NCBI GenBank assembly: GCA_963528005.1
Contig: CAURSM010000023.1
Span: 11,211-75,210 of the forward strand
Direction: 5' to 3'
DNA: 64,000 nucleotides
From: an uncultured Eubacteriales bacterium
GTDB lineage: Bacteria > Bacillota > Clostridia > Lachnospirales > Lachnospiraceae
Shown here: positions 1-21,242 of the stretch, piece by piece
Layout: each line of letters begins with the position of its first letter
How positions within the stretch are numbered: position 1 is the first letter of the stretch
Notes under the pieces: generated by a model
Told to the model about the DNA's origin: nothing
The model's input: only the letters and a program-made list of their open reading frames with translations
The model's database searches: none
Position numbers and translations under genes: made by a program

Positions 1-584
1 TAATTAAGACCAAGATGATCACTGGGAAGCAGTTCAAACACCTGCTTCCAAATGGAGGGCGTTGTCATTAAATTCTGTCCACCAGGCCACTGATCTTTCC
101 CAAAAAGCATGGGACAATTTTCAATGGCAATCTTTACATTCTCTTCCTCTGCCAGTTTTATAATTGGTGGCCATACCTCTTTTACCAGTTCCAGATTTTC
201 TTCGATACTCTTTTTCTGGTCCCTTCCAATGAATGTGGTCACCATTCCTACGGAGAGAATCCTGCTTGCCTTTATCATTGTCTTTAAGTGCTCTACAGCC
301 GCCTCTCCTTTCTTTTTATCTTCGTCGAGAGGATTGGGATAATAAGCCAAAGAGGAAATGGTGATTCCTTTTTTCTTTCCATAATTTTTTATATCATTGG
401 CGTAGGCAGGGTCCTTTACGACTCGTTCTACATCAATATGAGAGACTCCTGCGTAGCGTCTTTGCGCTTTCTCCTGAGGCCAACAGGCAACCTCTACACA
501 ATCAAAGCCCAGACTGGAGGCCAGATCCATCATCTCCTCAAAACTACTGCTATCCAGTATTGCGCTGACAAATCCCAGTTTCAT
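1..584 (-). CDS. sugar phosphate isomerase/epimerase (xylose-isomerase-like TIM barrel), N-terminal part; the gene runs off the left edge of the window
   Basis: Absent from the ORF track because it is truncated. Manual reverse-strand translation from the ATG at 582-584 (AGGAGG 6 nt upstream) gives MKLGFVSAILDSSSFEEMMDLASSLGFDCVEVACWPQ...KIAIENCPMLF. It starts 13 nt after the stop of the preceding gene. Confidence 0.75.
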   Translation of the reverse strand, partial: MKLGFVSAILDSSSFEEMMDLASSLGFDCVEVACWPQEKAQRRYAGVSHIDVERVVKDPAYANDIKNYGKKKGITISSLAYYPNPLDEDKKKGEAAVEHLKTMIKASRILSVGMVTTFIGRDQKKSIEENLELVKEVWPPIIKLAEEENVKIAIENCPMLFGKDQWPGGQNLMTTPSIWKQVFELLPSDHLGLN

Positions 585-597
585 ACTACCCCTCCTT

Positions 598-1563
598 TTA
601 CTCTGCAATCACCTTGTCAAAATCCTTATATTTTTGTAAATGCTCTTCCAGCCATTCTTTATTCTCTATGATTTTAGGAATGCAAACCTTTTTCATATTT
701 TCAATCTCCCAGTAATGGTCATAAAGACCTTCCATACTGGTCCTTGATATTTTCTTATCTTCCGGATTAAAATGAATCTTCATGGAACCATCACTCCACC
801 CCATGGTTCCTTTCACACCGCAGGTCACACAGTAAATGTCAGGTGCCTGATCCAGCATAAAGGATTTTCCATGGCATACCGGACAAACCCCTTCTTCTCC
901 ATACCATTCAACTTCATCGTACTCTTTTCCATAAGCCTCAGTTACTCTTTTTCCAAGCTCTCTGCACTGGCCCATAAGGTTATCATCAAACAGCGGATTG
1001 GCTCTCTGCCCCTGCCCATATGCATCCAGCTGACCAACCACCTTCATGTGGATGGAAGTGCCAAACTCAGTGATTGTAGGTAGACCTAAGGCTACCCAAT
1101 GAGGAGTATCTGCACCGCCAATCGACATATAGGCTACATACCGTTTCTTAAAATAACGAGGGTCTAAGAGTTCTTCACCGCTTTTTCCCTCTACGATTCT
1201 CTTTTTCTGAATTTCATCTAGGGCAGCGCGGTCATGGGAGGCACCAAAGCGATCAATGTAATTTTTAATCTGGCCCGTAGGTCCTACGGAAAATACAGGT
1301 GCTGCAACAATGATTCCATCTGCGTCCAGAATCTTTTCTACCAGCTTTTCATAATCATCCTTAATAATACAATGTACATTGTCTCCCTGATCCCGTTTCT
1401 GACTGCAAACTCCGCATCCCAGACATGGATCAATCCGCATCCCGATGGTGCGCACAAATTCCACCTCTGCACCTGCTTCTTTTGCTGCAAATAAAGCTTC
1501 CTTTACCATAATTTCTCCGCATTTCATGGCACGTCCGCCAAAATTAATTCCTAATACTTTCAT
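598..1563 (-). CDS. iron-sulfur flavoprotein-like / NADPH-dependent FMN reductase family protein with a C-terminal Cys4 zinc-ribbon-like extension (paralog 1)
   Basis: The flavodoxin-like N-terminus MKVLGINFGG aligns with the start of paralog 21243..22187. It has a compact Cys cluster (CLGCGVC...C) and a C-terminal CPVCH...CVTCG. I prefer the ATG at 1563 (AAGGAG 9 nt upstream) over the track start at 1584. Confidence 0.7.
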   Translation of the reverse strand: MKVLGINFGGRAMKCGEIMVKEALFAAKEAGAEVEFVRTIGMRIDPCLGCGVCSQKRDQGDNVHCIIKDDYEKLVEKILDADGIIVAAPVFSVGPTGQIKNYIDRFGASHDRAALDEIQKKRIVEGKSGEELLDPRYFKKRYVAYMSIGGADTPHWVALGLPTITEFGTSIHMKVVGQLDAYGQGQRANPLFDDNLMGQCRELGKRVTEAYGKEYDEVEWYGEEGVCPVCHGKSFMLDQAPDIYCVTCGVKGTMGWSDGSMKIHFNPEDKKISRTSMEGLYDHYWEIENMKKVCIPKIIENKEWLEEHLQKYKDFDKVIAE

Positions 1564-1587
1564 TCTCTTTTTCTCCTTTTTCATGGT

Positions 1588-2781
1588 CTAATATCGTTTG
1601 AAGCGTCCTACGTGTGTCAGACGGTCCGGAACAGAAGGAACTCTGCCTGTGGTACAAAGAATCACCTTTTCGGGGCATGCTTTCATACACCTTAGGCATT
1701 TGGTGCATTTTAATTCTTCAATCATATGGATATATCCAGGCAGTCCCTCAATGCAATCCTCAGGGCATTCTTTGATACAGCTTCCGCAGCCAATACAGCC
1801 TTGTGGAGCAATATAGATGTTAGTAAAAGCGGAACAGATTCCTTCTGCACATGTACGCTTTTTTATATGATCCACATATTCCTGTTCAAAAAGCCGGAAC
1901 GTATCCAGTACAAAGTCCGCTCCTGTATTGCCAACAGAGCATCTGGAGCTGTAAGTCATGGCTTCTACCAGTTCTTTCATGATCTCCATACTGCCCCATT
2001 CCCCATTTTTCATGGTAATTTCATGAATCCTGGTATGGAGCTGCAGTAGCCCCTCCCGGCAAAAGGTGCACTTGCCGCAGCATTCCCTGCGACCTGCGTA
2101 CAAGTTTTCTTCTGCTTCATGAAGCATACAGCACTTTTGGTCAAACACGGTTATTACACCCGTATCCTGGTTCCATATATCTGACTCAACAACTGATTGT
2201 TCCAGTTTGCCTGGTAAGTGCAGATGGGTTCCAAGCTGTATTGCTTTTATACTCTCAGGTTGCATCTCAATCAATTCGTTTAAAGGTGTGCCTGGTTTCA
2301 CCCATTTGGGATCACCATACCACTCCCCTTTTCCGCTTTTGTATTTTGTACACAGATAACATTCCGGTTCGTAAGTATCCTCTACTGTTTCGTAGAGTGC
2401 TTTTAGTATAATAAAGTTACAATAAAGGCAGGTATCAAGAATATCTGACGGAATCTTACCTAAATGCACCATTACTTCAACGTTAAATTCTGAAGCCTTT
2501 TTCTCTAATAATTCTTTAAGCTCCACCTTCTCCTCTGGAAGATAACATAAAAGTTTTACATCCTTCATAAGATAACCGGCAATTGCAAGTCCCTGCAAAA
2601 TCATCTCTGGGTTTTGCTCCATGATACGAAGAAGCATATGCTCCCTATCGTGATTATGAAGGCCGGTTACAATTGAAACGGTGTTCTTTCCAGTCGTAAT
2701 CCCAAAAGGAATTTCATTCTTTCTCACCCGTTCTATCAGGAATTCCCGTCCTGCTGCTTTCGCTTTTTGAACTGCATTCAT
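1588..2781 (-). CDS. NuoF/HydB-like iron-sulfur protein (N3-type 4Fe-4S motif plus C-terminal 2x[4Fe-4S] ferredoxin domain); FMN/NADH motifs appear degenerate
   Basis: ECCGKCTFCREG matches the NuoF ESCGKCxPCReG cluster motif. The C-terminus carries CIGCGSCIKECP and CTKCLRCMKACP. Its start overlaps the upstream gene by 4 nt. Confidence 0.7.
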   Translation of the reverse strand: MNAVQKAKAAGREFLIERVRKNEIPFGITTGKNTVSIVTGLHNHDREHMLLRIMEQNPEMILQGLAIAGYLMKDVKLLCYLPEEKVELKELLEKKASEFNVEVMVHLGKIPSDILDTCLYCNFIILKALYETVEDTYEPECYLCTKYKSGKGEWYGDPKWVKPGTPLNELIEMQPESIKAIQLGTHLHLPGKLEQSVVESDIWNQDTGVITVFDQKCCMLHEAEENLYAGRRECCGKCTFCREGLLQLHTRIHEITMKNGEWGSMEIMKELVEAMTYSSRCSVGNTGADFVLDTFRLFEQEYVDHIKKRTCAEGICSAFTNIYIAPQGCIGCGSCIKECPEDCIEGLPGYIHMIEELKCTKCLRCMKACPEKVILCTTGRVPSVPDRLTHVGRFKRY

Positions 2782-4862
2782 CGAACTTCCTCCTCCCAGT
2801 CAAAGCTGCCCCATAGTCTTGGAGGTGTGATCGTTAGCCTTAGATCGCACTGCAAGCATCTGTTTGCTTCCCCGCAGATATCCTCACTGCAGATTCCTTC
2901 ATGGTAAGGCAAAAAGCTGTTTACCCGCTTTTTATTTCCAAAGTTCTCAACTCTGCCAATGAAATCCTCCCGTTCTGTAGGTGGAGCAAGTATCTCACTA
3001 ATATCACCGTCCCCGCCTAGATACCGGTCAATGGAACCTGCGGCTTCCCGGCCAGAAGCAATTGCTTCTATTACAGATCTTGTTCCATAGACGACATCAC
3101 CAGCGGCAAAGATTCCATCAATCCCAGTTTTTAATGTTTTAGGATCTACTGTTATGTAACCACCAGGCGTAAGGGGCACTCCGCTTTCATTCTCTAGCTC
3201 AGGGCGCTGTCCCACTGCAAATATAACGGTATCGGCTTGAATGTGGTATTTCGAGTTTTCCTTTTTCGTAATAACTGGACGGCCCTCCTTATCAAAGGTA
3301 AAGGTTAAGACCTCCATGAACTCAACTCCATCTGCCTGTGATTCTCCAGTGATGCGCTCAAAGGTCAGGCCAGGATGCACTATGATTCCTTCTTCCATTG
3401 CCTGTGTGATTTCCTCTTCATCAGCCGGCATCTTTTCCCTGCTTTCCAGACAGGCCAGATGAACTTCTATCGCACCTAGACGTCTTGCTGTTCTTGCACA
3501 GTCGAAAGCCACATTGCCTCCTCCAAGAACAACCACTCTTTTTCCCATTCCAGTATCTTTATTTTCTGTGACAGCCTTTAGAAATTCGGTGTTTACCAGC
3601 ACCCCTTTCAGCTCAGCACCCTCTATGGGGAGCCGTATGCCTTTATGAGTCCCCAAGGCTAATAGCACAACCTCATATTCTTCTTTAAGAGCAAAAAGAT
3701 TTTCCACCTTTTTATTGCATTCCACCTTGATACCAATGTCCTTTATGACCTGCCATTCTTCCTCTATAATACTTACTGGAAGTCGGTATTCTGGTATTCC
3801 ATAACGAAGCATTCCCCCAGCCTTAGGGTTTGCCTCCAGTATAGTCACCTCGTGCCCTTGCTTTCTTAAATAATAAGCTGCCGTCATACCAGCCGGTCCT
3901 GCCCCTACGATACAGACCCTCTTTCCAGTATCTGGAAGCTGTTTTCCTTTTCCTCTCCAAAAGGTACCGGTATCGGCTTCTGCTGCAAACCGCTTGATTT
4001 CCCGGATGGACATGGCCTCATTGATCTCACCCCGTTTGCACTGCATTTCGCATACATGATTGCAGATGTAGCCAAGAACCTTTGGAAATGGCACTTTTTC
4101 CCGAATCACAGCCGCTGCTTCCTCAACTCTTCCCTCTCCCACCAGATAAATATAACGAGGCACATCTGTATGGGCTGGACAGGCGGCGCGGCAGGGTACA
4201 ATCATCTCTTCTCTGGTTTTCTCTGTTTCCATAAGAGAACGTTTGTCACGGATTGTCCCGGTTGGACAAACTTCCGCACATGCCTGACAAAACCGGCAGT
4301 CCTCATCCTTTAAAAGTTTATCATGAAGCGTACCAATGTAAGTCTCCATGTTTTCTTTGGAATACTTTAAAATCCCTACTCCTCTTAAATCCTTGCAGGC
4401 TCTGACACAGCGCCCGCAGAGGATACACCGGTTCATATCATGAGCTAGCAGGGGATTTTCTTCCACAGGACGAAACCCTTTTACCCTGTGCTTCATCCGT
4501 GTACTAGCTCCTCCTAGATATTGAATCAGGGTCTGCAGTTCACAGTTTCCGTATTTTGGACAGGTAGAGCAGTCTTCTGGATGACCTGCCAAAAGCAGAT
4601 CAAGGGCCAGGGAACGAAGCCTGCTTATTTTTTCGCTTTTTGTTTTGATGACCATACCGTCTCTTGGCTTTAAGGTACAGGAGGTAACCACCTGGTCCTC
4701 TCCTTCTACCTCTACAATGCATAACCGGCAGGAGCCGTGTTCTGGAAGATTGGGATGGTGGCACAAATGAGGAATGTAGATTCCTGCCTTAAGCGCCTCT
4801 TCCAACACACAAGATTCTTCCGGCACCTGAATTTTTATACCATCGATTGTTATTGCTGGCAT
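2778..4862 (-). CDS. multidomain Fe-S flavoprotein: NuoG/HydA-like N-terminal 2Fe-2S and 4Fe-4S domains fused to a GltD/NfnB-like NAD(P)H-dependent FAD oxidoreductase
   Basis: ITIDGIKIQVPE...SCRLC (2Fe-2S), HPEDCSTCPKYGNCELQ (NuoG His-Cys3 motif), CILCGRCVRAC and CRFCQACAEVCP, then VCIVGAGPAGMTAA and VVVLGGGNVAFD Rossmann motifs. The ATG at 4862 has GGAGG 5 nt upstream; the track start at 4874 overlaps the upstream stop codon. Confidence 0.8.
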   Translation of the reverse strand: MPAITIDGIKIQVPEESCVLEEALKAGIYIPHLCHHPNLPEHGSCRLCIVEVEGEDQVVTSCTLKPRDGMVIKTKSEKISRLRSLALDLLLAGHPEDCSTCPKYGNCELQTLIQYLGGASTRMKHRVKGFRPVEENPLLAHDMNRCILCGRCVRACKDLRGVGILKYSKENMETYIGTLHDKLLKDEDCRFCQACAEVCPTGTIRDKRSLMETEKTREEMIVPCRAACPAHTDVPRYIYLVGEGRVEEAAAVIREKVPFPKVLGYICNHVCEMQCKRGEINEAMSIREIKRFAAEADTGTFWRGKGKQLPDTGKRVCIVGAGPAGMTAAYYLRKQGHEVTILEANPKAGGMLRYGIPEYRLPVSIIEEEWQVIKDIGIKVECNKKVENLFALKEEYEVVLLALGTHKGIRLPIEGAELKGVLVNTEFLKAVTENKDTGMGKRVVVLGGGNVAFDCARTARRLGAIEVHLACLESREKMPADEEEITQAMEEGIIVHPGLTFERITGESQADGVEFMEVLTFTFDKEGRPVITKKENSKYHIQADTVIFAVGQRPELENESGVPLTPGGYITVDPKTLKTGIDGIFAAGDVVYGTRSVIEAIASGREAAGSIDRYLGGDGDISEILAPPTEREDFIGRVENFGNKKRVNSFLPYHEGICSEDICGEANRCLQCDLRLTITPPRLWGSFDWEEEVR

Positions 4863-4873
4863 AATCCCCTCCA

Positions 4874-6325
4874 TTATATTTTTTCTTTTATGTATTCCAC
4901 TGCACTGAGGGCTGCAATGCGTCCTGTATTAACCGCATAGCCCATGGAATTACCAGGCAGCAAAAACATGTAGCTGTCATCGTAGATGTTGCAGGAATCT
5001 GCACCTGCACAGTAAAGTCCAGGTACTGGCATATAATCGTTGTCGCAGGCCTCACAGTTTTCGTTGATTCGTATCCCTCCAACAGTTCCATATCCACCGG
5101 GGTGAATTGCTGCCGCATAATAGGGAGCCTTAAACAAAGGTCTTAAGTATTTGGGATCTTTAAAGAATTCAAGGTCTCTGCAATCACAAAAATAGTTATA
5201 ATTGTCTACAGTTTCTTTTAAATTGTCTGCATTAATCCCAGCTAATTGTGCCAGTTCCTCTATGGTATCAGCAATAAAATAATGTTTGCTTCCATTTTTC
5301 TTCAGCATCTGAATGCCTTCATAAAAGTCTGACACATCTGGATTGGGAGTTACCAGACTCGTCACGTCTACGCCATGGCTGATATAATAATTTACAATGG
5401 AACTATCTACGATTGAAAAACAGACCTTACCCCTTTGATGGTTTGCCACATTGGATAGGTAAGTGGTGTTTTGCATATAATCCTCATTCATAACTCTCTT
5501 ACCAAAAGAATTCACCAGCAGATTGGGCTGCTTCATAATATTGGTGACTCCACCTGTGGTGGGCTCCCCCCCTCCCAGATCACTGGCCATTTCAATTCTC
5601 ATCTGGGTCTGGTCCGCTCCTGCCTCCCAAGCCATTCTAAGTCCATCGCCCATTAACCCTGGGATGGCGAAGTTAAAGACATCCTTGCCATGCTCCAGCC
5701 CGGTATGCTCCTTAATCATATCCTTATTGGCTCCTGCTCCTCCGGTACAGATAATTGCAGCATTGCAGTTGACTCTAACCTCCTGCCCGTCAGGAGAAGT
5801 TCCAATCATACCAGTTACTTTTCCATGTTCCTTTATAATCTTTTTTACAGAATGCTCTAACAGGATTGTTACTCCAAGTTCCAGAGCCTTCTCATACATA
5901 GCTCGATTCATAAAAGATGCTGCCCTTGGTCCAATCCCTGTATCTGTCTTTACAATGTGCCAGGTTGCTTCTGACTGGGGGAAGTAGCGGAATGCGCCCT
6001 CAAACTCAACGCCCATATCCTCAAGCCACTGTATGGTTTCTCCAGACTGGGAAAAATACCGCTTTACTAGCCTGGCATCCACATTGTAATGGGTATAATC
6101 CATAAACATGTTAAACGCTTTTTCTACACTGATGTCTATCATCTGTCTTTTCTGATATAAGGTCCCGATTCCCAAAGGACCCATTCCCATATTGGCGGCG
6201 CCCCCAACTGTAGATGCCTTTTCAAGCACCACCACACTTGCCCCCAACTGTGCTGCCTGAACAGCAGCCGCCAGTCCGGAAGGGCCTGCCGCAATGACTC
6301 CGACCTGTGCTTCATACTCTTTCAT
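4874..6325 (-). CDS. FAD-dependent oxidoreductase of the fumarate reductase / urocanate reductase / 3-ketosteroid dehydrogenase flavoprotein family (FAD_binding_2); soluble
   Basis: N-terminal dinucleotide fold VGVIAAGPSGLAAAVQAAQLGASVVVLEK and C-terminal GLYCAGAD motif. No signal peptide or TM segment. It is the first gene of the operon, downstream of a 262-bp AT-rich region. Confidence 0.8.
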   Translation of the reverse strand: MKEYEAQVGVIAAGPSGLAAAVQAAQLGASVVVLEKASTVGGAANMGMGPLGIGTLYQKRQMIDISVEKAFNMFMDYTHYNVDARLVKRYFSQSGETIQWLEDMGVEFEGAFRYFPQSEATWHIVKTDTGIGPRAASFMNRAMYEKALELGVTILLEHSVKKIIKEHGKVTGMIGTSPDGQEVRVNCNAAIICTGGAGANKDMIKEHTGLEHGKDVFNFAIPGLMGDGLRMAWEAGADQTQMRIEMASDLGGGEPTTGGVTNIMKQPNLLVNSFGKRVMNEDYMQNTTYLSNVANHQRGKVCFSIVDSSIVNYYISHGVDVTSLVTPNPDVSDFYEGIQMLKKNGSKHYFIADTIEELAQLAGINADNLKETVDNYNYFCDCRDLEFFKDPKYLRPLFKAPYYAAAIHPGGYGTVGGIRINENCEACDNDYMPVPGLYCAGADSCNIYDDSYMFLLPGNSMGYAVNTGRIAALSAVEYIKEKI

Positions 6326-6535
6326 ATATGTAACTTCCTTTCAGAACAATTTGAATTAACAAGTATAATTATATAATTTATCTCAAATAGTTTCTCGACA
6401 CTTTCACGATTATATCAGCATTTATTCTAGTATTTTTAATCTATTTTCCATTATTAATTAATTTCAATTATTAAATATTAAATATTTCTCATATTCATTA
6501 ATATTATCCGTATGTTTGTACCTTTAAGATAGAAG

Positions 6536-6579
6536 TACCGGAAGAACCAAAGTACTAATTCTCTTTGATTCCTCCGGTA
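6536..6579 (-). terminator. long imperfect hairpin directly after the DgpC-like stop codon; possible operon boundary
   Basis: TACCGGAAGAACCAAAG...CTTTGATTCCTCCGGTA forms a stem of about 17 bp with mismatches. The minus-strand U-tract is weak, so termination efficiency is uncertain. Confidence 0.4.
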
Positions 6580-6587
6580 TTTTAATA

Positions 6588-7640
6588 TTATTCCTCTATG
6601 GCTCTTCTAAGCGCCTCCTGCTGACGCCTTACCTGTTCAATGCTGTCAACCTCCAGAGCATCATTTAGCATCCGGTTTCCTTCGTATTCGGAAGAAAGAT
6701 ATCCGTTATAACCAGCTTTTTTATAAGCTTCCACCACTTCTTTTATCGGGATGGAGGTTTCTTCATAAGCCTCATTCATATGATAAAACTTGGCATGTGT
6801 ATGATAAATATACTGGATATTATCAATAATATCTTTGGGATCGCACCAGGTATAATCAAAAGTGGAACCTGCATAGGCCAGTTCTGCCGGCGTGGCATGA
6901 ATCTTCTCCAATGTCTCCATTAGATTTGGATATCCATTGGCCTTCATATACGCTCCATGAGCCCTTCCCAGATTTAAATCGTATTTAATCTTTGTGAATC
7001 CTTGATTCACACGGTTTAAGAAAGCATCTTCTACGATTTTAATCACTTCTTCCCGGCATCCATTACGAACAGCCTGAGCGGTCAGAATATCCGGGATCTT
7101 GCGGCAGAAGATTCCAAAATCGGGCATAAAACCAAAATGCCTTGTGCCGGTCTTATGTATCATTTCCATATAGCCGTCAGCCCAGCCGGAACTAAGGGAG
7201 AAGGGAGAATGTACCTCTATACAGATTTTAATATCCTTTTCTTCTGCATATGGTATGCTGCCTTCAATCACATCCATAGGAGTAGAAACCAGGGTTCTTA
7301 AGGTCTGAAAGCCTAGCTGACTGGCATTTTCAATATCCCGCTTCATCATGGCAATCTGCTCTCGCAAGGTACAAATCCGGTTGTCATAGATTCGATTTTC
7401 CAGAAAAGCATCGTAGCAGGTTGGCTCTGTCCCATACTTTTTCATCCAGCCAAACCATTTCTCTTTAAACTCCGGTGTAATCACCGGAAAATCATCTACC
7501 ATCTGCTCTGCTAAAAGCTCAATGCCTGTGGCTCCTGTTTTCGCGGTTTCTCGTATACAGCCTTCCAGATCAAGCTTTCCTTCGTAATACTCCTGCTGGT
7601 AGCTGTATAGAGACACACTTATTTTTATTTTGTTATCCAT
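6588..7640 (-). CDS. C-glycoside deglycosidase alpha-subunit-like TIM-barrel protein (DgpC/CarB-like sugar phosphate isomerase/epimerase fold)
   Basis: Xylose-isomerase-like TIM-barrel sequence (GIELLAEQ..., ICIEVHSPF). It follows a ~128-aa partner ORF and a Gfo/Idh/MocA oxidoreductase. The ATG at 7640 has GGAGG 7 nt upstream; the track start at 7661 is a TTG overlapping the upstream stop. Confidence 0.7.
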   Translation of the reverse strand: MDNKIKISVSLYSYQQEYYEGKLDLEGCIRETAKTGATGIELLAEQMVDDFPVITPEFKEKWFGWMKKYGTEPTCYDAFLENRIYDNRICTLREQIAMMKRDIENASQLGFQTLRTLVSTPMDVIEGSIPYAEEKDIKICIEVHSPFSLSSGWADGYMEMIHKTGTRHFGFMPDFGIFCRKIPDILTAQAVRNGCREEVIKIVEDAFLNRVNQGFTKIKYDLNLGRAHGAYMKANGYPNLMETLEKIHATPAELAYAGSTFDYTWCDPKDIIDNIQYIYHTHAKFYHMNEAYEETSIPIKEVVEAYKKAGYNGYLSSEYEGNRMLNDALEVDSIEQVRRQQEALRRAIEE

Positions 7641-7657
7641 CCCATTTCCTCCCTGTC

Positions 7658-8044
7658 TCAAAGTTCAAAATCGTACTCACCTGCATGAACCAGAATATGT
7701 GGCATGTAGGAAGGTGCAATTGTCTGGGTACACTTGATGTGATGGTTACCAGGGGCCAGACCACCCTCTGCAATCACCGTAACCGTTCCATACTGGCCAA
7801 ACAGCCAGCGATTGCTGATTACAGTTTTCATCTCATCCTGTGTAAAGGTTTCCCCATTAACCGTAAACAATATGGATTCCCTGGGATATTCTACTCCATC
7901 TACATTGACTTCAATATTGCGTAAAATCGAAAGGGTGATGCCCCGATAATACTGAATCTTCATTTTAAAACAAAAACCTGTAACTCTGCCTTCTTCCTCT
8001 ATGTTTTGAAAGCCAAGAGGATGATACATCTGTTTTGGAAACAT
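7658..8044 (-). CDS. small C-glycoside deglycosidase beta-subunit-like protein (DgpB/DUF6379-like)
   Basis: 128 aa, positioned between the oxidoreductase and the TIM-barrel gene as in dgpABC-type loci. The YYRGITLSILRNIEVNVDG pattern resembles my recollection of this family. No search was possible. Confidence 0.6.
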   Translation of the reverse strand: MFPKQMYHPLGFQNIEEEGRVTGFCFKMKIQYYRGITLSILRNIEVNVDGVEYPRESILFTVNGETFTQDEMKTVISNRWLFGQYGTVTVIAEGGLAPGNHHIKCTQTIAPSYMPHILVHAGEYDFEL

Positions 8045-8073
8045 AATGATTTGGCTCCTTTTTATAATTTAAT

Positions 8074-9177
8074 TTAGAAAAAAACTTCTTTCCCGGTTTC
8101 GGCAGACTGATAGATGCCCTCCAGAATTTGAGTGACTACAAATGCCTGCTCTGGCTTCACAAGAGGATCCTCATTATTTAAGATTGCCAAAAGCCACTGC
8201 TTCTGCTCTCTGACTCCTTCAGCGGAAGCACCACCTTCAAAGAAATCCACCACTCCAGCAGGAGATATGGTTTTCTCCATGAGTGTGTTGTGCTCCACAG
8301 TATTGTAGATTAATTCATCTTTTGGATAACTGCCCCCATGATGAATCTCAGCTCCCGCTTTCGTACCGCAAAGTGTGGTGGATGCCTCCATGGATTTTAA
8401 AACATTCAGGGCCCAGGATGCCTCCAGATAAATGGTCGCTCCATTTTTCATCTTTACAAGCCCAAATGCGGAATCTTCTACCTCAAAGGTTTCTGGGTCC
8501 CATGGACCAAATACATTGCCTTCCGGTCCATCTGCCTGACGCCCCAGCTTATAATATACCTGGCCGGAAACAGATAAAGGCTCATAGTTATTCATCATCC
8601 AAAGTGTAATATCCAGAGCATGGGTTCCAATATCAATCAGGGGGCCTCCCCCCTGGAGTGACTTATCCGGGAATACTCCCCAGGTTGGTACTGCTCTTCT
8701 TCTTAATGCATGGGCCTTAGCAAAATAGATCTCTCCCAATTCATTGGCTGCACAAGAGGCATGTAGGGTCTGAGTATCTTCCCTTAGTCGGTTTTGATAG
8801 CCAACGGTGAACTTTTTCCCCGACTTCTTCCACGCATCCAGCATTTTTATTGCATCTTCCGTGGTATGTGCCATTGGCTTTTCACACATCACATGCTTTC
8901 CGGCTTCAAACGCCGCAACTGTTATGGGACAATGAGCCACATTGGGTGTGCAGACATGAACCACATCCACATCAGGATCATTCACCAGGTCATTATAATT
9001 GGAATACACCTTTGCATCTGTTGAACCGTATTCTCTGGCGGCTTTCACAGCCCTCTCTTCCACAATGTCGCAGAATGCAACAATTTCATTCAATTCTCCA
9101 TTTGCTTTTAATGATGGCATATGCTTCTGATTTGCTATTCCGCCGCAGCCGACGATACCAATTCTTAATTTTTTCAT
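8074..9177 (-). CDS. Gfo/Idh/MocA family NAD-dependent oxidoreductase (DgpA-like glycoside 3-oxidase candidate)
   Basis: N-terminal Rossmann motif MKKLRIGIVGCGGIANQKH, an EKP motif (CEKPMA), and a length typical of the family. Confidence 0.8.
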   Translation of the reverse strand: MKKLRIGIVGCGGIANQKHMPSLKANGELNEIVAFCDIVEERAVKAAREYGSTDAKVYSNYNDLVNDPDVDVVHVCTPNVAHCPITVAAFEAGKHVMCEKPMAHTTEDAIKMLDAWKKSGKKFTVGYQNRLREDTQTLHASCAANELGEIYFAKAHALRRRAVPTWGVFPDKSLQGGGPLIDIGTHALDITLWMMNNYEPLSVSGQVYYKLGRQADGPEGNVFGPWDPETFEVEDSAFGLVKMKNGATIYLEASWALNVLKSMEASTTLCGTKAGAEIHHGGSYPKDELIYNTVEHNTLMEKTISPAGVVDFFEGGASAEGVREQKQWLLAILNNEDPLVKPEQAFVVTQILEGIYQSAETGKEVFF

Positions 9178-9199: not shown

Positions 9200-10567
9200 T
9201 TATTTCATTCGTTCCAAATCTCTTTGTTCATTTCTAATCCGAAGCTTCTCCCTGATTTCAGGCATATCGCTCTCTTTTAACTTGTAGCAAGCAATGGGAA
9301 TAAGGGAAAGTATAAAAATAATTGCAGGCATTACGTTAGTTGCAATGATAATACCTGTTTTCACGTGTTCCGTAATTTCTTGCCCAGCTACATATCCATA
9401 CCAGCCTATAATTGCAATTCCTAGAGCACCTCCAAGAGCCGTACCGATTAAACCACCTAAGCCATTTAAAGAAAATGCGGTACCATCGGTTCTTACTCCT
9501 GTTTTTAAATCTCCATCATCAACTGCATCAACAATCATACAAGATCCGCAGGGCCCAGCAATATATCCAAGACCATATACAATGTGACATAAGAAGAGAT
9601 AAGGGATATTCATATAGGGACCAAATACCATCATTAGCAGACCTAATGCCTGGACGAGACCAGAGAAATAAATGGTTTTCTTCTTCCCAAAGTGTTCCAT
9701 AACCTTAGGAGAAAATGGCATAATGAGCGCGCCTACCAGCATCTGCATCATCATAAAGATAGTGATAAAGGTAAAATTTTTCACTACATATAAATAGAAA
9801 TAAACAGCCACTCCAATACGCCCAAGCATGCCTGCCATATTTAAAATGGTATACAGCACAATCATCATTAAGTTTTTATTCTTAATAATAAGCTTTGCAG
9901 ATTCTTTTAGGGAAACCTGATCTTCTTTATGTACTTGTACCGTCTCTTTGCATCTCCACGCGCACAACCAGAAGATAGGAAGAGCAATCAATGCAAAAAC
10001 ACTGGCTGTTTTTTGATACCCAACTCCCATATCACCACCACCAAAGAGATTTACAAGGGGGAGGGTTACGAGATTTAAAAGAATCATTCCAAATACCATG
10101 CCCATCATCTGAGCCGTATTTAAGCGGTTGATTTTCTTACTGTCTGTTGTCATAACTGCCGGCAAAGCAAGATATGGTACATTGGATATGGTGTAAGACA
10201 TGCCAAGACCAATGTATGTAATATACGCATAAATAAGCTTTCCTTTACTCCCAAACCCAGGTACTGTAAAGGTTAATACGGTAAACAGAACCAGCAGAGG
10301 AGCCCCTATGACAATATAAGGCCGAAATCGTCCGAATCTGGTATGAGTACGTTCCATCAATGCGCCCATTAAAGGATCACTTACCCCACTCCAAATCTTT
10401 GCTATAAGAAAAAGAACCGCAACGGAACCGGCGCTTAATCCAAAAACATCTGTGTAAAATACTGCCAGGTAGGTGGTTACCATTGTCCAGGAAAGCTGAG
10501 AGGCAAAATTCCCCATGCCATAGGTAACGTATTCCATCGGTCCTATCTTACTGCTTTTAGTCCCCAT
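9200..10567 (-). CDS. glycoside-pentoside-hexuronide (GPH):cation symporter family transporter
   Basis: About 12 TM segments with a MelB/GPH-like N-terminus (YGMGNFASQLSWTMVTTYLAVFYTDVFG). The ATG at 10567 follows AGGAGA; the track start is at 10585. Confidence 0.75.
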   Translation of the reverse strand: MGTKSSKIGPMEYVTYGMGNFASQLSWTMVTTYLAVFYTDVFGLSAGSVAVLFLIAKIWSGVSDPLMGALMERTHTRFGRFRPYIVIGAPLLVLFTVLTFTVPGFGSKGKLIYAYITYIGLGMSYTISNVPYLALPAVMTTDSKKINRLNTAQMMGMVFGMILLNLVTLPLVNLFGGGDMGVGYQKTASVFALIALPIFWLCAWRCKETVQVHKEDQVSLKESAKLIIKNKNLMMIVLYTILNMAGMLGRIGVAVYFYLYVVKNFTFITIFMMMQMLVGALIMPFSPKVMEHFGKKKTIYFSGLVQALGLLMMVFGPYMNIPYLFLCHIVYGLGYIAGPCGSCMIVDAVDDGDLKTGVRTDGTAFSLNGLGGLIGTALGGALGIAIIGWYGYVAGQEITEHVKTGIIIATNVMPAIIFILSLIPIACYKLKESDMPEIREKLRIRNEQRDLERMK

Positions 10568-10820
10568 TTTTATTCTCCTATTCATTTTTTTGTGTCATGC
10601 GCGCATTTGAAATCCAGCTGTACCCTTATGATTTCTTGCTCTAATTATAGCAAAATGGACCATTCCTCACGTTTCTATATTCAGCTTTATTCTCTTTATT
10701 TCCGGCTTTATTTAACCTTTTATCTTTTCACTCCAACAAATAAATATATTAAAATTAAAGATTATCGAAATTAGTTAATATATATGATACAATGAAAAAA
10801 ATGGAATCTATGGAGGGGTC

Positions 10821-13265
10821 ATGAATCCAATATTTGAAATTCAATCATTTGTTCAATCAGCCAATCTTTATCTCCTAAGCAAAACAGAAGCACTTCCGGT
10901 GCCTGGACTGGATCTTATTACCATCCTTCGGGGTACTATGACAATCAAAGAGCCTCCAATCTGCTGCAGCCCAAAAGACTGCTTGATTCTTGGGCCTGGC
11001 AATGTAATCAGCGTCACATCTGACGACGAATGCCTGTTTCTTAAGGTCTCTCTCCGCCCAGAATGTATATTGGATACATTGTTTCAGGAATCCATTCTAG
11101 CAAGTCCTACAAGGCGTTTGTCCAGCTCTGAACAAATGCATTCGGTTCTTCTGGATTATGCAAAAGTATATTTAAGCGGGCAGACCTTGAATCAATACCG
11201 GTTATCAGCCCTGACCTTGCAGCTTCTTGATCTTCTCAACAAAGACTCCTCTTTGCTAGCCGGCTTACCTCACGGCTCCACAGAACAGGAATACTCGAAA
11301 CAGGAACTCTTAGTGCAACGGGTTACTGCTTATTTAGAGGAAAACTACAAGGAGAATCCTGGCCTGTCCAAAACAGCAGCCTTTTTTACTATTACACCTC
11401 AATATCTGTCCAGCCTTTTTCAGAAATATTTTAATCAGACCTTTCAAAATCATTTAAAAGGAGTGCAGTGCAGACAGGGAGCGCTCTACTATAGATATAC
11501 GGATCTGGAGTTACATGAGATATGCGAAAGAGTGGGACTGACAAGCCCGGACACTCTCAAAGACTATATTAATCTGGAAGGCATAAAAAAGCCTGTTATC
11601 TCCGGGCTGCCTTCCTCTTCTTTTATGAACCCCCTTTCCCCTGAAAGCAGTCTCCTATCGTTCAGACAGATAAAGAGCGGACAGACTCCTCCAACAGAAA
11701 AGCCGGTCCGTGTTTATGAGATTATAGAGACAACAGTCTTAAAAAGCAGGGAAATGCCAGGCTTTTGGAACCGACTCATTAATTTGGGCTATGCACAGGA
11801 TTTTTCCAATGTTAAAATATTTCACCAGTTAACATATACACAAAGGGAAATAGGATTTTCATATGGAAGAATCTGTAGACTTTTTGATCTTGTCTCCCAA
11901 TATTCCATTGGCGGAAAATCCATTTATGATTACAATCAGATTTTTCAGATTTTAGACATTATGGTAGAAAACCGGATGCTCCCCTTTCTTGAGCTCAGCA
12001 ATAAGCTCTTTCGCATCCATCTTTCTGCCAAAGAAAATATTGCAAAAAACTTAGTCGGCAGCACAGTTTCTTATTTTGATCAGCTTCTGGAGATTCTTCC
12101 CCACTTTTTGCGAGCCTGTATTAACCGCTATGGACAGGAGTCTGTCAATTCCTGGCGCTTTGAAATCAGTTATACCATTTATGACTTTATCGAGCTGTCC
12201 GAAATTTTTCCTTTGTCAAAATATATCCGGTATTTCAAACGCCTAAAAGAATTAATTAAGACATATGCCCCAGAATGCCAGGTAGGAGGCCCAGGCTTTA
12301 ATCAATGGAACAATCCGCAGCTTCTCACAAAAATATATGAGATGATGCAAGCGGCACAAGCTACACCCGATTTTTTAACAGCTTACATCTATCCCCTAAC
12401 CAGTGATGGTGCGGATGCCTCCATTTCCTCCGATGAGGATCTTGCTATTAAAAGAATCAAAGAAATCAGTGAAATAACAAAGAGCTTAAATCCAAAACAT
12501 GATCTTTGGATTACTGAATTTAACTCCAATATCTCTTCCCGCAACCTGCTCAATGATTCCAGCTTTCAATCGGAATTTCTTGCAAAGAACTTATCCCAGT
12601 CATGCGGACTTGATATTGAAGCTTTGGGTTATTACATGCTCTTTGATGTCCCTCTTCGCCATTCTGATTCCATGGACATGCTGTTTGGAGGATGGGGACT
12701 CTTTACAGACAGTGGTATCCCAAAGCCCTCTTACCACGCTTATCACATGTTTTCCATGCTAGGGAAGCATTTGTTATATGCCCATAAGAATTTTTTAATT
12801 ACGGCAGACTCCAGTTCCAGCTTCCGCTTTTTATTTTTTCATTACGAACATATTAATCCTGCCTTTACTGGCAGAAATATTCAGATTGAAGACTTTGAGA
12901 CTGATGGAGCTTTTTTTATATCAACAAGCCCGGATTACTGGGAAATCAGAGTTAATGATACCGCCGAGGGTACCTATTTGGTCAAAGAATATGTAATATC
13001 TGACAGTCGCAGTAATCTTTTATTTCTCTGGAAGCAAATGAATTTAATAACAGTTTCGCGTCCGGAAAATATATCCGTCTTAAAGCAGAATTCCTCCATG
13101 CTGCCTAAGTTAACGACTTTGGAGGTTGACCACAGTGGACAAATGAACTATCAGATCAGTCTCAGACGCCGGGAAGTCAAACTTGTCACCATTGACCTTC
13201 ACACCGCACCTGCATCCATTCGAAGGAGGCCAGCAAATGAATTGGTACCAAAATCTCCCTACTAA
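10821..13265 (+). CDS. AraC-type regulator fused to a GH39-like (clan GH-A) domain lacking the acid/base motif; the HTH region looks divergent
   Basis: The N-terminal cupin-like region is followed by an AraC-like segment (TPQYLSSLFQKYFNQTF). The C-terminal ~500 aa resemble GH39: WRFEISYTI replaces W-FE-WNEP, and the nucleophile-type ITEFN is retained. Confidence 0.6.
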   Translation: MNPIFEIQSFVQSANLYLLSKTEALPVPGLDLITILRGTMTIKEPPICCSPKDCLILGPGNVISVTSDDECLFLKVSLRPECILDTLFQESILASPTRRLSSSEQMHSVLLDYAKVYLSGQTLNQYRLSALTLQLLDLLNKDSSLLAGLPHGSTEQEYSKQELLVQRVTAYLEENYKENPGLSKTAAFFTITPQYLSSLFQKYFNQTFQNHLKGVQCRQGALYYRYTDLELHEICERVGLTSPDTLKDYINLEGIKKPVISGLPSSSFMNPLSPESSLLSFRQIKSGQTPPTEKPVRVYEIIETTVLKSREMPGFWNRLINLGYAQDFSNVKIFHQLTYTQREIGFSYGRICRLFDLVSQYSIGGKSIYDYNQIFQILDIMVENRMLPFLELSNKLFRIHLSAKENIAKNLVGSTVSYFDQLLEILPHFLRACINRYGQESVNSWRFEISYTIYDFIELSEIFPLSKYIRYFKRLKELIKTYAPECQVGGPGFNQWNNPQLLTKIYEMMQAAQATPDFLTAYIYPLTSDGADASISSDEDLAIKRIKEISEITKSLNPKHDLWITEFNSNISSRNLLNDSSFQSEFLAKNLSQSCGLDIEALGYYMLFDVPLRHSDSMDMLFGGWGLFTDSGIPKPSYHAYHMFSMLGKHLLYAHKNFLITADSSSSFRFLFFHYEHINPAFTGRNIQIEDFETDGAFFISTSPDYWEIRVNDTAEGTYLVKEYVISDSRSNLLFLWKQMNLITVSRPENISVLKQNSSMLPKLTTLEVDHSGQMNYQISLRRREVKLVTIDLHTAPASIRRRPANELVPKSPY

Positions 13266-16867: not shown

Positions 16868-17725
16868 TCATGTTTTCCTGTTCCAAAATTCTTTTATCAG
16901 TTTCACCTGATTGCAATATTCTGTCATACAGTGAATCATCATTAGTTTCATCTCTCTCATAGTTTTATCCCGGTCTGGCTCCGGCTTATAAATAAGCGTT
17001 CCATCTTTCTGAAAGGTCAGGCCATTCCAGTAATGAACTTTTAATTCCCGGCCTGTATCAGTTTCTCTTGTATGCTGGACCATGCACATAACTCTTTCTC
17101 TTGTTTGGATTTCATTTATCTCCTCTGCTTTCCCACCAAGTCCCATGAGAAAAATACATTGAGGATCACGCTTAGAGATATCTTCCTTATGGATTCCCAA
17201 ATGTTCAAAACAAAAGTTGTTCCAATTCATCTCCATCCGCATCATTCCCCAGCCAAAGTCCTCAATCGCACCGTCTTCAAAATGAATGAGATGGGCCCCT
17301 GGATACCACGTTTTATAAAACAGGTTACAGTTTTCGTCATTAGCAAAACCTTCCTGGTAGTTTTTAATCATCTCATCCGTAATTCCGTCCTGCACGATTT
17401 TAATTGCAGCAAAGCCGATTCCATTAGACAACACTCCATAGCCATTTTCCGGATACGTATTACTCCCATCAAGAAGTATGCTTCCGGCAAGCTCTGGCAT
17501 ATAACATTCCTCTGGTTTAAGCGGTCCATGTTCCACTGCCCTTACATGCTCCGGCTGAAGCTCTGCCAGCGGTTCATAATAATATTTTGCAAAAGCAGAT
17601 TCACTCTCTTTCTTCGTTAACCCTATTGTCATATTTCTTAAATCTTCTAAGGAAACCTCATTCATCATTCTCCCGCAGGTACGAGGTGATACCATTATTT
17701 TTCCCTTACTAAATACACAAGCCAT
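16868..17725 (-). CDS. phloretin hydrolase / 2,4-diacetylphloroglucinol hydrolase (PhlG) family protein, putative
   Basis: 285 aa, the size of Phy/PhlG. It has a C-terminal H-x3-E pair (IHCMTEY) like the second His/Glu zinc ligands reported for PhlG, plus upstream WYPGAHLIHFED. It is next to TetR/MFS genes and near a chalcone isomerase homolog. GGAGG lies 7 nt before the ATG. Confidence 0.55.
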   Translation of the reverse strand: MACVFSKGKIMVSPRTCGRMMNEVSLEDLRNMTIGLTKKESESAFAKYYYEPLAELQPEHVRAVEHGPLKPEECYMPELAGSILLDGSNTYPENGYGVLSNGIGFAAIKIVQDGITDEMIKNYQEGFANDENCNLFYKTWYPGAHLIHFEDGAIEDFGWGMMRMEMNWNNFCFEHLGIHKEDISKRDPQCIFLMGLGGKAEEINEIQTRERVMCMVQHTRETDTGRELKVHYWNGLTFQKDGTLIYKPEPDRDKTMREMKLMMIHCMTEYCNQVKLIKEFWNRKT

Positions 17726-17912
17726 GTTCTTTCCTCCGTTTCTTCCCTTTCATTCAGTTGAATAATCCTAAGATATCAGGTATAATTTTCTTTAACTATT
17801 ATCATTGATTCATCATACCGAAATAGATGCGCAAAAAGAAGAACACATTTTAGAAATATGTTCAGTTTGCTCTACGCATTTCATAGTCTATGACTAGAAA
17901 GAAAGGGGAATC

Positions 17913-18545
17913 ATGGAGGCAAAAAGTGATAAAAAGCCAGGGAAGGGGCTACTGACAAAGAAAACCATAGCTGATTCCTATCTTGCTATGATTCCTTTTA
18001 AAAAGTGGGATAAAATTACGGTTAAGGAAATTTGTGCTGAGGCAGATATTACAAGGGGTACCTTTTATCTATATTACAATGATATTTATGACTTGATGGA
18101 ACAGATAGAAGCATCACTTCTTTCAGAACTGACAAAGAGATATTCAACACTTACAGATGACGATTCCTCTGCCTCATTTTCGAGAGATCTCCTATCCTTT
18201 GATGTGACCCCTCCTGCTATGTTTTTGACCTGGTTTGATTTTTGTAAAGATTATAAACGGGAAATGATTGCTTTATTGGACCGAAAGAATGGGGATATGT
18301 ATTTTATAAGTAAATTAAAGCATTTCTTATTAATCCATATCAATAACATCATGGATCGGGACGGATTACCTAAGGATGGACTCCGAACTCATTTTTCAAA
18401 GATATTTTTGGAGCTTCATTTAATGGCAGCTCAGACCTGGTTAGAGCAGGGAGACGACCAGTTTTTATCAACAGATGAAATCGTAAATCTTTTAAATACC
18501 ATGCGGGTTGGAGCCAGATATTTGTCCTACCGTAAACTTGTCTAG
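17913..18545 (+). CDS. TetR/AcrR family transcriptional regulator
   Basis: N-terminal HTH (ITVKEICAEADITRGTFYLYYNDIYDL). It is divergent from the hydrolase gene. Confidence 0.8.
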   Translation: MEAKSDKKPGKGLLTKKTIADSYLAMIPFKKWDKITVKEICAEADITRGTFYLYYNDIYDLMEQIEASLLSELTKRYSTLTDDDSSASFSRDLLSFDVTPPAMFLTWFDFCKDYKREMIALLDRKNGDMYFISKLKHFLLIHINNIMDRDGLPKDGLRTHFSKIFLELHLMAAQTWLEQGDDQFLSTDEIVNLLNTMRVGARYLSYRKLV

Positions 18546-18604
18546 AAAGTTTGTATGATCCTAAGCGAGTTATCTGCTCTCGTCGCAAGTGCTTCTTATT
18601 GCAC

Positions 18605-18634
18605 AAAAAAGCTACAGACATTTCTGCCTGTAGC
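18605..18634 (-). terminator. Rho-independent terminator ending the long minus-strand unit
   Basis: On the minus strand, GCTACAGGCAGAAATGTCTGTAGC is followed by TTTTTTG. This is the first clear hairpin plus U-tract downstream of 28961. Confidence 0.7.
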
Positions 18635-18655
18635 CTAAATAAAAACATACTTTTT

Positions 18656-19870: not shown

Positions 19871-19885
19871 TGCTTCATTTCTCCT

Positions 19886-20722: not shown

Positions 20723-20723
20723 G

Positions 20724-21236: not shown

Positions 21237-21242
21237 TTTTTA

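Follow-up and report, generated by a model that had tools for sequence, protein, structure and literature searches.

A conserved unit of three genes, here called the triad, was identified at the left end of a 64,000-nucleotide stretch of DNA from an uncultured Eubacteriales bacterium of the family Lachnospiraceae (contig CAURSM010000023.1, positions 11,211 to 75,210 of the forward strand; the whole stretch is called the window, and all coordinates without a locus label are positions in it). The triad lies next to dgp genes for the cleavage of C-glycosides. It encodes a flavin adenine dinucleotide (FAD) protein of the FAD_binding_2 family (FADb2), an NfnA-like input subunit that joins the N-terminal part of NuoG to a GltD-type module, and a NuoF-like connector subunit that has lost its motifs for flavin mononucleotide (FMN). 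We consider it about an even call that the triad would be a soluble heterotrimeric reductase in which an iron-sulfur (Fe-S) wire fed by NADH leads to the C=C bond of a polyphenol aglycone, most plausibly in a step like that catalyzed by Fcr. A preliminary description of this DNA had reported five adjacent co-directional redox and TIM-barrel genes at 1-6325, and the open reading frames (ORFs), all on the minus strand, and their Pfam domains agree with it:

6325..4874, minus strand, FAD_binding_2 gene (FADb2), 483 amino acids (aa), Pfam FAD_binding_2 E=2e-46
2778..4862, minus strand, input subunit gene (NuoG-N plus GltD), Pfam Fer2_4, NADH-G_4Fe-4S_3, Fer4_Nqo3, Fer4_20 and Pyr_redox_2; alternative ATG at 4874
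1588..2781, minus strand, NuoF-like connector gene, 397 aa, Pfam NADH_4Fe-4S and a 2x[4Fe-4S] domain
598..1563, minus strand, FMN_red gene (paralogue of the flavone reductase FLR), Pfam FMN_red; alternative ATG at 1584
1..584, minus strand, TIM-barrel gene, xylose-isomerase-like, AP_endonuc_2 E=7e-21, cut by the window edge

All the redox genes and the TIM-barrel gene had been described together as one reductase operon, but the genes that travel together in other organisms make up a smaller unit. The NuoF-like family comprises ~113 clusters at 90% identity, and its members are all ~400 aa long, distinct from the true HydB and NuoF proteins of ~600 aa. A genome scan with one genome per species gave 24 loci with full-length members. 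After mapping of the ORFs against the window proteins, genes for FADb2, NuoG_GltD and the NuoF-like protein were found together in 20 of these loci, and in the other 4 the contig ends next to the module. A metagenome scan yielded 9 further complete triads. The core gene set occurs in over 30 independent loci of other species or metagenomes, and the arrangement is accordingly not a chance one. The FMN_red gene is present in ~12 of the 24 genome loci at varying positions, and the genes that the TIM-barrel and GFO genes go along with are those of the dgp set. A complex of five subunits was therefore rejected.

Other genes may stand between the FADb2 gene and the input gene in other species, and they encode a SnoaL-like protein, an MFS transporter and a ROK glucokinase. 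With these identities they were rejected as additional redox subunits. A 113-aa SnoaL/NTF2-like protein that is 63-100% identical across loci adjoins FADb2 or the FLR paralogue in loci L006, L010, L011 (for example L011:5175-5516), L047, L082-L089, L093, L095 and L101. It had no tblastn match in the window, which carries a canonical chalcone isomerase instead, and it may be an isomerase of the pathway.

Two of the subunits are linked by natural gene fusions. In four loci (L012, L017, L024 and L096) the NuoF-like protein and FADb2 are fused in frame by a linker of ~55 residues that is rich in Lys, Ala and Pro. The linker starts right after a tail that is specific to the NuoF-like family (TGRVPxxPDRLTxVGRFKRY), and in the fused proteins FADb2 sits precisely where the NuoF-like ferredoxin domain ends. 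The fusions are Rosetta-stone evidence that the two proteins probably work in contact. We infer a complex of the Fe-S subunits as well, since solved complexes exist for the homologous pairs NfnA/NfnB, StnC/StnB and HydA/HydB. One other fused ORF was seen in L100 (L100:1774-4818), where 1014 aa combine a type III glutamine synthetase with the C-terminal two thirds of a NuoF-like protein; it is probably an artefact of assembly or ORF calling.

In a distant subgroup, which includes Eubacterium ramulus, FADb2 shows 46-52% identity and the triad is a stand-alone operon with a divergent PucR-type regulator. These three-gene operons suggest that the triad is self-sufficient as an enzyme. The input subunit of E. 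ramulus appears in 195 blocks of the sequence collection, and single 90%-identity clusters of FADb2 and of the input subunit each occur in ~200 blocks. The NuoF-like subunit diverges fastest; when the window proteins are compared with those of L002-L047, the median identity is 35% for this subunit, but 62% for the input subunit, 68% for FADb2 and 82% for DgpA. This fast divergence fits the role of a scaffold or connector.

The connector retains the fold of its relatives and has lost their flavin site. The match to Complex1_51K is below threshold (17.6 bits against a cut-off of 31.2), and an AlphaFold2 (AF2) model of the protein (pLDDT 89) superposes over its full length on HydB, NfnB and StnB (Foldseek TMq 0.69-0.75). 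In a MAFFT alignment with true HydB and NuoF proteins, the N-terminal [2Fe-2S] domain, the GGxGF(P/A)TG loop and the (N/G)DEGDPG motif are lost, and a deletion of ~45 aa covers GAFVCGEETAL...NNVET. The CGKCxFCREG...C motif of an N3/B1-type [4Fe-4S] cluster and both CxxCxxCxxxC motifs are retained and invariant in the family, and the CPAGxC pair and the C-terminal 2x[4Fe-4S] ferredoxin domain are also kept. A search with the N-terminal half recovered 29 representative clusters among 1.84 billion proteins, and 0 of them were canonical NuoF. In enzymes of the Bfu family the site of bifurcation is the flavobicluster B1-FMN-C1, and BfuB binds FMN and NAD(H) (PMC11829005). Judged by its motifs, the connector cannot bind FMN, and no NuoE-like 2Fe-2S_thioredx gene was found in the operon or on its contig within 10 kb. 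The loss of the FMN motifs and of the NuoE-like C subunit is taken to exclude bifurcation of the Bfu type, and membership in the Bfu family was rejected on the same grounds.

The input subunit is a rearranged relative of NfnA. It aligns with Csac NfnA (9bov_A, from the NfnABC complex of C. saccharolyticus) at E=3e-122 in three pieces. Residues 8-103 align with NfnA 6-101, which is the [2Fe-2S] domain, residues 102-213 align with NfnA 566-676, which hold a His/Cys-ligated [4Fe-4S] and 2x[4Fe-4S], and residues 227-677 align with NfnA 103-567, which is the GltD-type FAD/NAD(P)H module with two [4Fe-4S]. The N-terminal part has the motifs for a NuoG-type [2Fe-2S] and three [4Fe-4S] clusters. The GltD module is C-terminal with its motifs intact, whereas in NfnA the module is inserted after the [2Fe-2S] domain. 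The MopB-like domain of NfnA, ~500 residues long, is missing, and the NuoG-type arm is left without a catalytic domain. Where the second strand of the dinucleotide fold ends, the Y-R-R of NfnA (2'-phosphate motif) is C-L-E in the window protein and in 23 orthologues. By the usual rule for Rossmann folds, Leu-Glu in place of Arg-Arg predicts a preference for NADH over NADPH. Electrons would enter at the GltD module, as the FMN/NADH motifs of the connector are lost while those of the GltD module are intact.

Both Fe-S subunits descend from bifurcating Bfu/Nfn enzymes, and an energy-conserving variant was considered in which the GltD-type FAD would bifurcate as in NfnSL, with NADH oxidation driving both C=C reduction and, at the same time, the endergonic reduction of ferredoxin in a form of 'flavonoid respiration'. 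The GltD module is related to NfnL as well (E=1e-59 to 1e-63), the clusters far outnumber what a simple NADH-dependent reductase needs, and NADH reduces an enone C=C in a strongly exergonic reaction, as is also the case for the bifurcating Bcd-Etf and CarCDE. However, the B1-FMN-C1 site cannot form, the operon contains neither an NfnS-like small subunit (FNR-like, with FAD and [2Fe-2S]) nor a ferredoxin gene, and the GltD module is closest to that of the Bfu-type NfnA, where it is only the entry point for NADPH and not the bifurcating flavin. Bifurcation at the GltD-type FAD is on balance quite doubtful.

FADb2, the predicted catalytic subunit, appears to be soluble; it has no signal peptide, FMN_bind domain or haem domain. 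An Fe-S cluster within the protein is unlikely since its four invariant cysteines are scattered and form no motif. The kinship to soluble fumarate and urocanate reductases that had been proposed is borne out by the FAD_binding_2 domain and by the best PDB sequence matches, which are flavocytochrome c3 fumarate reductases (E=1e-33) and the urocanate reductase UrdA (6T85, E=1e-20). These matches would also suit an ordinary soluble fumarate or urocanate reductase that adjoins the dgp genes by chance. This is hardly credible, as His365, Arg402, His504 and Arg545 of fumarate reductase are replaced by Ser, Gln, Tyr412 and Leu in the residue alignment, the replacements lie in invariant columns of the orthologue alignment, and different genera keep the FADb2 gene linked to dgp and FLR-type genes. 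The position of Arg402, the proton donor that UrdA shares, is Gln in FADb2, and Gln285 and Y412-G-T-V-G416 are invariant among 22 orthologues. With all four substrate and catalytic residues replaced, FADb2 is not a fumarate reductase. More than 120 clusters share at least 69% identity with FADb2.

Profile searches, which had been suggested as a way to find the closest characterized FAD_binding_2 reductase, put the family of VprA nearest among named families. The best NCBIfam match is NF053717 (vinyl phenol reductase; E=5.6e-83, residues 6-477 against 7-480 of 481). VprA from Lactiplantibacillus plantarum (lp_3125) reduces the vinyl group of 4-vinylphenols (PMC10295242). FADb2 is, by its profile score, a relative and not an orthologue of VprA. 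In the fold search with the FADb2 model the highest TM-scores (0.53-0.58) were obtained for 3-ketosteroid and cyclohexanone dehydrogenases. The replaced fumarate residues, the kinship to VprA and the fold neighbors point to a substrate whose C=C bond would be conjugated to a phenol and/or a ketone, and not to a carboxylate.

The direction of electron flow that we infer from these parts would be as follows. NADH would be oxidized at the FAD of the GltD-type module in the input subunit, and single electrons would pass through the two [4Fe-4S] clusters of this module to the NuoG-type clusters and then through the connector, which lacks FMN, by way of its [4Fe-4S] cluster and its C-terminal 2x[4Fe-4S] ferredoxin domain. 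From there they would reach the FAD of the VprA-like FADb2, which would deliver a hydride to the C=C bond conjugated to a phenol and/or ketone. The substrate would be a polyphenol aglycone that is freed by the neighboring DgpA/DgpA2-DgpBC C-glycoside lyase system. The leading candidate would be the conversion of a chalcone or flavanone to a dihydrochalcone, which elsewhere is carried out by the OYE-type Fcr, and the runner-up would be the C2=C3 bond of a flavone or isoflavone. The FLR paralogue would be a separate ene-reductase that may draw electrons from the same Fe-S module.

Which substrate would be reduced? The genes in the rest of the region that bear on this question are listed here:

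6326..6587, no strand, AT-rich spacer of 262 nt between dgpC and the reductase genes (sequence)
7661 or 7640..6588, minus strand, DgpC (Pfam; gene calls in L001)
8044..7658, minus strand, DgpB (CGDB E=9e-40)
9177..8074, minus strand, DgpA (PDB 7xr9, DgpA of strain PUE, E=5e-172)
10585..9200, minus strand, MFS_2 transporter (Pfam)
10821..15615, plus strand, two AraC-HTH/GH39-like hybrid proteins of ~810 aa each, tandem and divergent (Pfam)
17725..16868, minus strand, Phy-like DAPG_hydrolase (Pfam)
17913..18545, plus strand, TetR-like gene, 210 aa (Pfam, weak TetR_N)
20722..19886, minus strand, bacterial chalcone isomerase (Chalcone_N E=3e-49)
22187..21243, minus strand, true FLR orthologue (PDB 7D38 E=1e-136)
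within 16868..22187, minus strand, an MFS gene and a DUF1097 gene (Pfam)

The stretch 16868-22187 carries genes for FLR, chalcone isomerase (CHI) and a Phy-like protein, with no Fcr-type gene between them. In Clostridium butyricum the canonical gene order is FLR-Fcr-Phy (PMC11868195). An OYE-type enoate reductase had been described as absent from the window, and this stands for the large ORFs: no Oxidored_FMN protein was found among the five proteins or among the window ORFs of at least 330 aa, all of which were scanned except a 457-aa ORF at 47344-48717 (EIIC/EIIB of a phosphotransferase system, PTS). In L087 the order is AraC/GH39, FLR paralogue, FADb2, input and connector, with no dgp gene within 10 kb; the FAD subunit of this locus occurs in 60 blocks of the sequence collection. 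In L024, a Scybalocola/Catenibacillus metagenome-assembled genome, the order is input, connector::FADb2 fusion, DUF1097, DAPG_hydrolase (E=3e-72) and AraC. When these two independent layouts are set against the FLR-Fcr-Phy order, the triad occupies the position of Fcr. A chalcone is at once an enone and a 4-hydroxystyrene, in agreement with the relationship to VprA. A chalcone/flavanone step like that of Fcr is tentatively placed first among the substrates, and another aglycone C=C bond, such as C2=C3 of a flavone or isoflavone or a different bond of the vinyl-phenol type, is nearly as likely, with some weight left for a substrate of a different class.

Several observations weigh against the reduction of aglycones as in the Fcr step. 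The commonest version in the human gut (L083-85, with the FAD subunit in 224 blocks of the sequence collection) has the order TIM2-DgpA-DgpB-DgpC-DgpA2-FADb2-SnoaL-MFS-ROK glucokinase-input-connector and lacks FLR, CHI and Phy genes within 10 kb. Its interleaved glucokinase, MFS and SnoaL genes tie the triad to deglycosylation at least as tightly. In L107 the NuoG_GltD/NuoF-like pair lies beside GFO, TIM-barrel and OYE-type genes with no FADb2 gene within 10 kb, and FADb2 genes without Fe-S partner genes within 10 kb occur in L082 and L088. The score of FADb2 against NF053717 is 279 bits, far below the equivalog cut-off of 600. The AF2 model of FADb2 is mediocre (pLDDT 71) and the fold search confirms the superfamily only, and the active-site reading is taken from the sequence alignment alone. 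A resemblance of the Tyr-x3-Gly motif of FADb2 to KstD is presumed. An OYE-type Fcr is known from E. ramulus (literature including PMC11868195) and from Catenibacillus. E. ramulus also carries the triad, however, and a Catenibacillus-like contig carries FADb2. With both Fcr and the triad in E. ramulus, the replacement of Fcr is not general. One of the two functions proposed earlier, a non-orthologous replacement of Fcr, is thus the better supported for the window by FLR, CHI and Phy without Fcr, by L087 and L024 and by the kinship to VprA, but it did not hold as a general rule.

The loci just named have further neighbors. In L107 (L107:7692-15269) the input and connector genes are followed by genes for an AP_endonuc_2 TIM barrel, a GFO oxidoreductase and a 671-aa OYE/BaiCD-like Fe-S flavoenzyme, and a xylulokinase-like gene, an aldo/keto reductase gene and a thiolase plus DUF35 pair lie upstream. 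The FADb2 orthologues of L082 and L088 (L082:10001-11446 and L088:10001-11446; 71% identity) are found among 3-4 DgpB/DgpC pairs, beside a Peptidase_S15/CocE-like hydrolase.

The second function proposed earlier, which concerns the enone sugar that C-glycoside lyase releases, is read here as a reduction of 2-hydroxy-3-keto-glucal from DgpBC by FADb2, working together with the TIM-barrel and GFO enzymes. In its favor, the link of FADb2 orthologues with DgpB/DgpC is more consistent than that with any enzyme of aglycone metabolism, the triad is interleaved with glucokinase and sugar-type genes in L083-85, the module stands with GFO and TIM-barrel genes in L107, and among the structural relatives of FADb2 are cyclohexanone and 3-ketosteroid dehydrogenases, enzymes acting on cyclic enones. 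However, DgpA, DgpBC, the TIM-barrel protein and the ROK glucokinase are all encoded in related loci, and with these the sugar branch is complete without a reductase. Glucose is the reported end product in strain PUE (literature), and the deglycosylation cycle is redox-neutral since DgpA re-oxidizes itself on 3-oxo-glucose. A redox-neutral cycle with glucose as product and a conserved glucokinase has no need of a reductase. The reduction of the enone would give 1,5-anhydro sugars, which are not known as substrates of glycolysis. In addition, there are no dgp, GFO or TIM-barrel genes close to the triad in L087 or to the stand-alone triads, and the nearest named family of FADb2 acts on vinyl phenols. 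A sugar enone is therefore considered an improbable substrate, and the reduction of an aglycone is preferred.

The TIM-barrel gene, which had been counted with the reductase system, is instead assigned to the sugar branch together with the DgpA2-type gene. The proposed roles of this branch are the hydration of the enone and the 3''-oxidation of C-glycosides. The GFO gene that lies beyond the window edge matches PDB 9m37/9m39 (DgpA2 with isoorientin) at E=1e-123 over residues 4-345. The operon thus encodes, by homology, two C-glycoside 3''-oxidoreductases, one of a type that has been solved with a flavone 6-C-glucoside bound. PDB matches of the TIM-barrel protein are weak (the uncharacterized 2ZDS at 9e-15; the hydratase 8RO4 at 4e-4 over 90 residues), and it is a candidate for the 2-hydroxy-3-keto-glucal hydratase.

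The fourth gene had been called an Isf-like FMN reductase, and this was corrected. Its product has a flavodoxin-like FMN domain and a C-terminal extension and matches FLR (PDB 7D38) at E=1e-41 over residues 8-295; it is a paralogue of FLR and 34% identical to the true FLR orthologue of the window. The protein 7D38 is the flavone reductase FLR of Flavonifractor plautii, in which mutagenesis showed that D103, G106, W149, H271 and I275 matter (PMC7862272). The equivalents of these five residues are kept in the paralogue, with the tail beyond residue 276 outside the alignment. It was also reported that FLR cannot use NAD(P)H, the physiological electron donor was left as an open question, and no cysteine, metal or iron-sulfur center was described in the crystal structure paper (PMC7862272). 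An alignment of 19 FLR-family sequences (28-79% identity), which come from the window and from loci L006-L099 and include the crystallized enzyme, showed eight invariant cysteines. They form the groups CX2CX2CX11-12C in the flavodoxin-like domain and CX2C...CX2C in the C-terminal subdomain. The first group resembles the compact [4Fe-4S] motif of Isf, CX2CX2CX4-7C, with a longer spacing before the last cysteine. The cysteines are consistent with a [4Fe-4S] center and a rubredoxin- or zinc-ribbon-like center, and FLR enzymes may be oxygen-labile iron-sulfur flavoproteins. The eight cysteines make an Fe-S or ferredoxin-type donor plausible for the FLR family, and the adjacent module is a candidate donor on circumstantial evidence.

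This bears on a further rival, in which the NfnA-like/NuoF-like pair is a shared wire and the electron donor of the Isf-type FLR paralogue, either with two terminal reductases or mainly with the FLR paralogue. The gene of the paralogue comes right after the NuoF-like gene in the window and in L016, L020 and L086 and lies immediately beside the triad in L012, L022 and L087, the cysteines of the paralogue suit metal centers, and no catalytic domain is attached to the NuoG-type arm of the input subunit. On the other hand, no fusion of FLR with a subunit of the module was seen, the place of the paralogue varies and neither the stand-alone triads nor L083-85 have it, there is no such module near the true FLR orthologue of the window or near the FLR genes of C. 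butyricum and C. ljungdahlii, and the crystal structure paper reports no metal center. A shared wire is unlikely. A combined form, in which an NADH-oxidizing Fe-S 'plug' would feed both the VprA-like FADb2 and the Isf-type FLR paralogue and possibly co-reduce ferredoxin, is rather improbable. If it were true, it would supply the electron chain that the discoverers of FLR left open, and evolution would have turned a bifurcating transhydrogenase into a module for polyphenol 'respiration' that occurs widely in the human gut. The reading that is preferred over both is the triad with FADb2 as terminal reductase.

The layout of the genes largely agrees with the earlier account. Positions 1-10585 are one run of minus-strand genes from the MFS_2 gene through the TIM-barrel gene. 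The 4-nt overlap of the input and connector genes at 2778-2781 was upheld, with ATGA present. A stop/start overlap at 4874 had also been proposed, and it depends on the ATG that is chosen. A GGAGGGG Shine-Dalgarno sequence sits between ATG 4874 and ATG 4862, homologues of the input subunit align from residue 5, and the metagenome gene call is 694 aa. For these reasons the start is probably 4862, which leaves a gap of 11 nt to the FADb2 gene. The gaps of 3-24 nt were found as described: the first ATG of the FMN_red gene (1584) would give a gap of 3 nt, the probable start at 1563 (MKVLGI..., 321 aa, with AAGGAG upstream) gives 24 nt, and 13 nt separate the FMN_red and TIM-barrel genes. The sequence to the left of the window was recovered from a metagenome contig of 715 kb (L001), where the TIM-barrel protein is complete with 306 aa and is followed by a 348-aa GFO/IDH/MocA gene, the DgpA2-type gene, after which the gene run stops.

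No terminator-like hairpin was found in the spacer at 6326..6587, and the terminator scan was uninformative; matches to promoter consensus sequences were likewise no commoner than in shuffled sequence. The spacer may hold an internal promoter. The AraC-HTH/GH39 pair is presumed to act as sensor-regulators of the system. Homologues adjoin most related loci (L006, L010, L013, L019, L039, L047, L082, L083, L086-L089, L095 and L099), including the dgp-free L087. A 53%-identical homologue of the TetR-like protein at 17913-18545 is encoded just downstream of the NuoF-like gene in Mediterraneibacter-type loci (L011:11727-12401; L083:18148-18822). Directly downstream of the FLR/LVIVD genes, at 23611-28019 on the minus strand, are genes for a butyrate/acetate-kinase-like protein, a phosphate butyryl/acetyl-transferase and a three-subunit 2-oxoacid:ferredoxin oxidoreductase, the last of which is a possible local source of reduced ferredoxin.

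How the gut converts flavone and isoflavone C-glycosides, among them orientin, vitexin and puerarin, and the corresponding aglycones sets which bioactive phenolics reach the host. Triad genes are common in gut Clostridia, and a model flavonoid degrader, E. ramulus, has a stand-alone version. In the databases consulted the genes are named only 'FAD-dependent oxidoreductase', 'fumarate reductase flavoprotein', 'glutamate synthase small chain' and 'NuoF', and such names mislead the prediction of flavonoid metabolism from metagenomes. Three testable gaps are brought out by the triad, which are the reduction of aglycones in dgp-carrying Lachnospiraceae without an OYE-type Fcr nearby, the delivery of electrons to FLR-type reductases, and the re-use of Bfu/Nfn modules after the loss of the bifurcating flavin.

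[quoted passage not shown] The resemblance to Nfn, Stn and HydABC enzymes without identity to any of them was also confirmed. Csac NfnA and NfnB, Stn and HydB are the best PDB relatives (references were NfnABC of C. saccharolyticus, 9BOV/9BP5, the Thermococcus sibiricus enzyme, 9N5U, and Stn of Sporomusa ovata, 8OH5), and the FMN/NADH motifs and the NuoE-like gene are absent. The input subunit is like BfuA/NfnA in its Fer2_4, NADH-G_4Fe-4S_3 and Fer4_Nqo3 domains and its GltD-type module, and the connector is like NfnB, StnB and HydB in its fold, its B1 [4Fe-4S] motif and its C-terminal 2x[4Fe-4S] domain. Unlike the Bfu enzymes, the triad has no NfnC/NuoE-like subunit, its connector lacks the FMN/NAD(H) motifs and the N-terminal [2Fe-2S] domain, and a FAD_binding_2 reductase is attached. 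Unlike in NfnA, the GltD module is C-terminal, there is no MopB-like domain, and Leu-Glu stands for Arg-Arg. Compared with NfnSL, only the NfnL-like GltD module is present and NfnS is absent.

The catalytic side of the triad has other relatives. FADb2 is like VprA in being a soluble FAD_binding_2 protein that aligns end to end over ~481 aa, and VprA acts on a C=C bond conjugated to a 4-hydroxyphenyl group and not to a carboxylate. However, vprA is drawn with a LysR regulator only, whereas the FADb2 gene is linked and sometimes fused to Fe-S partners. The FAD_binding_2 fold is shared with the 3-ketosteroid (4AT0, 4C3X, 7P18) and cyclohexanone (8AM3) dehydrogenases, whose substrates are ketones or enones without carboxylates, but these enzymes desaturate with other electron acceptors and their identity to FADb2 is 18-24%. 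The fourth protein has the five key residues and eight cysteines of FLR (PDB 7D38-7D3B); it is a paralogue, and its gene is tied to an Fe-S module. With Fcr (ERED/EnoR of E. ramulus and F. plautii) the triad would share the proposed NADH-dependent conversion of flavanone or chalcone to dihydrochalcone and the place between FLR and Phy, but its fold and cofactors are unrelated and it has no Oxidored_FMN domain. The triad would work like a modular NADH:acceptor reductase. Its parts are of known kinds; the combination, which none of the papers found describes, is a soluble FAD_binding_2 reductase hard-wired to a Bfu-derived module that has neither the bifurcating flavin nor the C subunit, with NADH predicted to enter through GltD.

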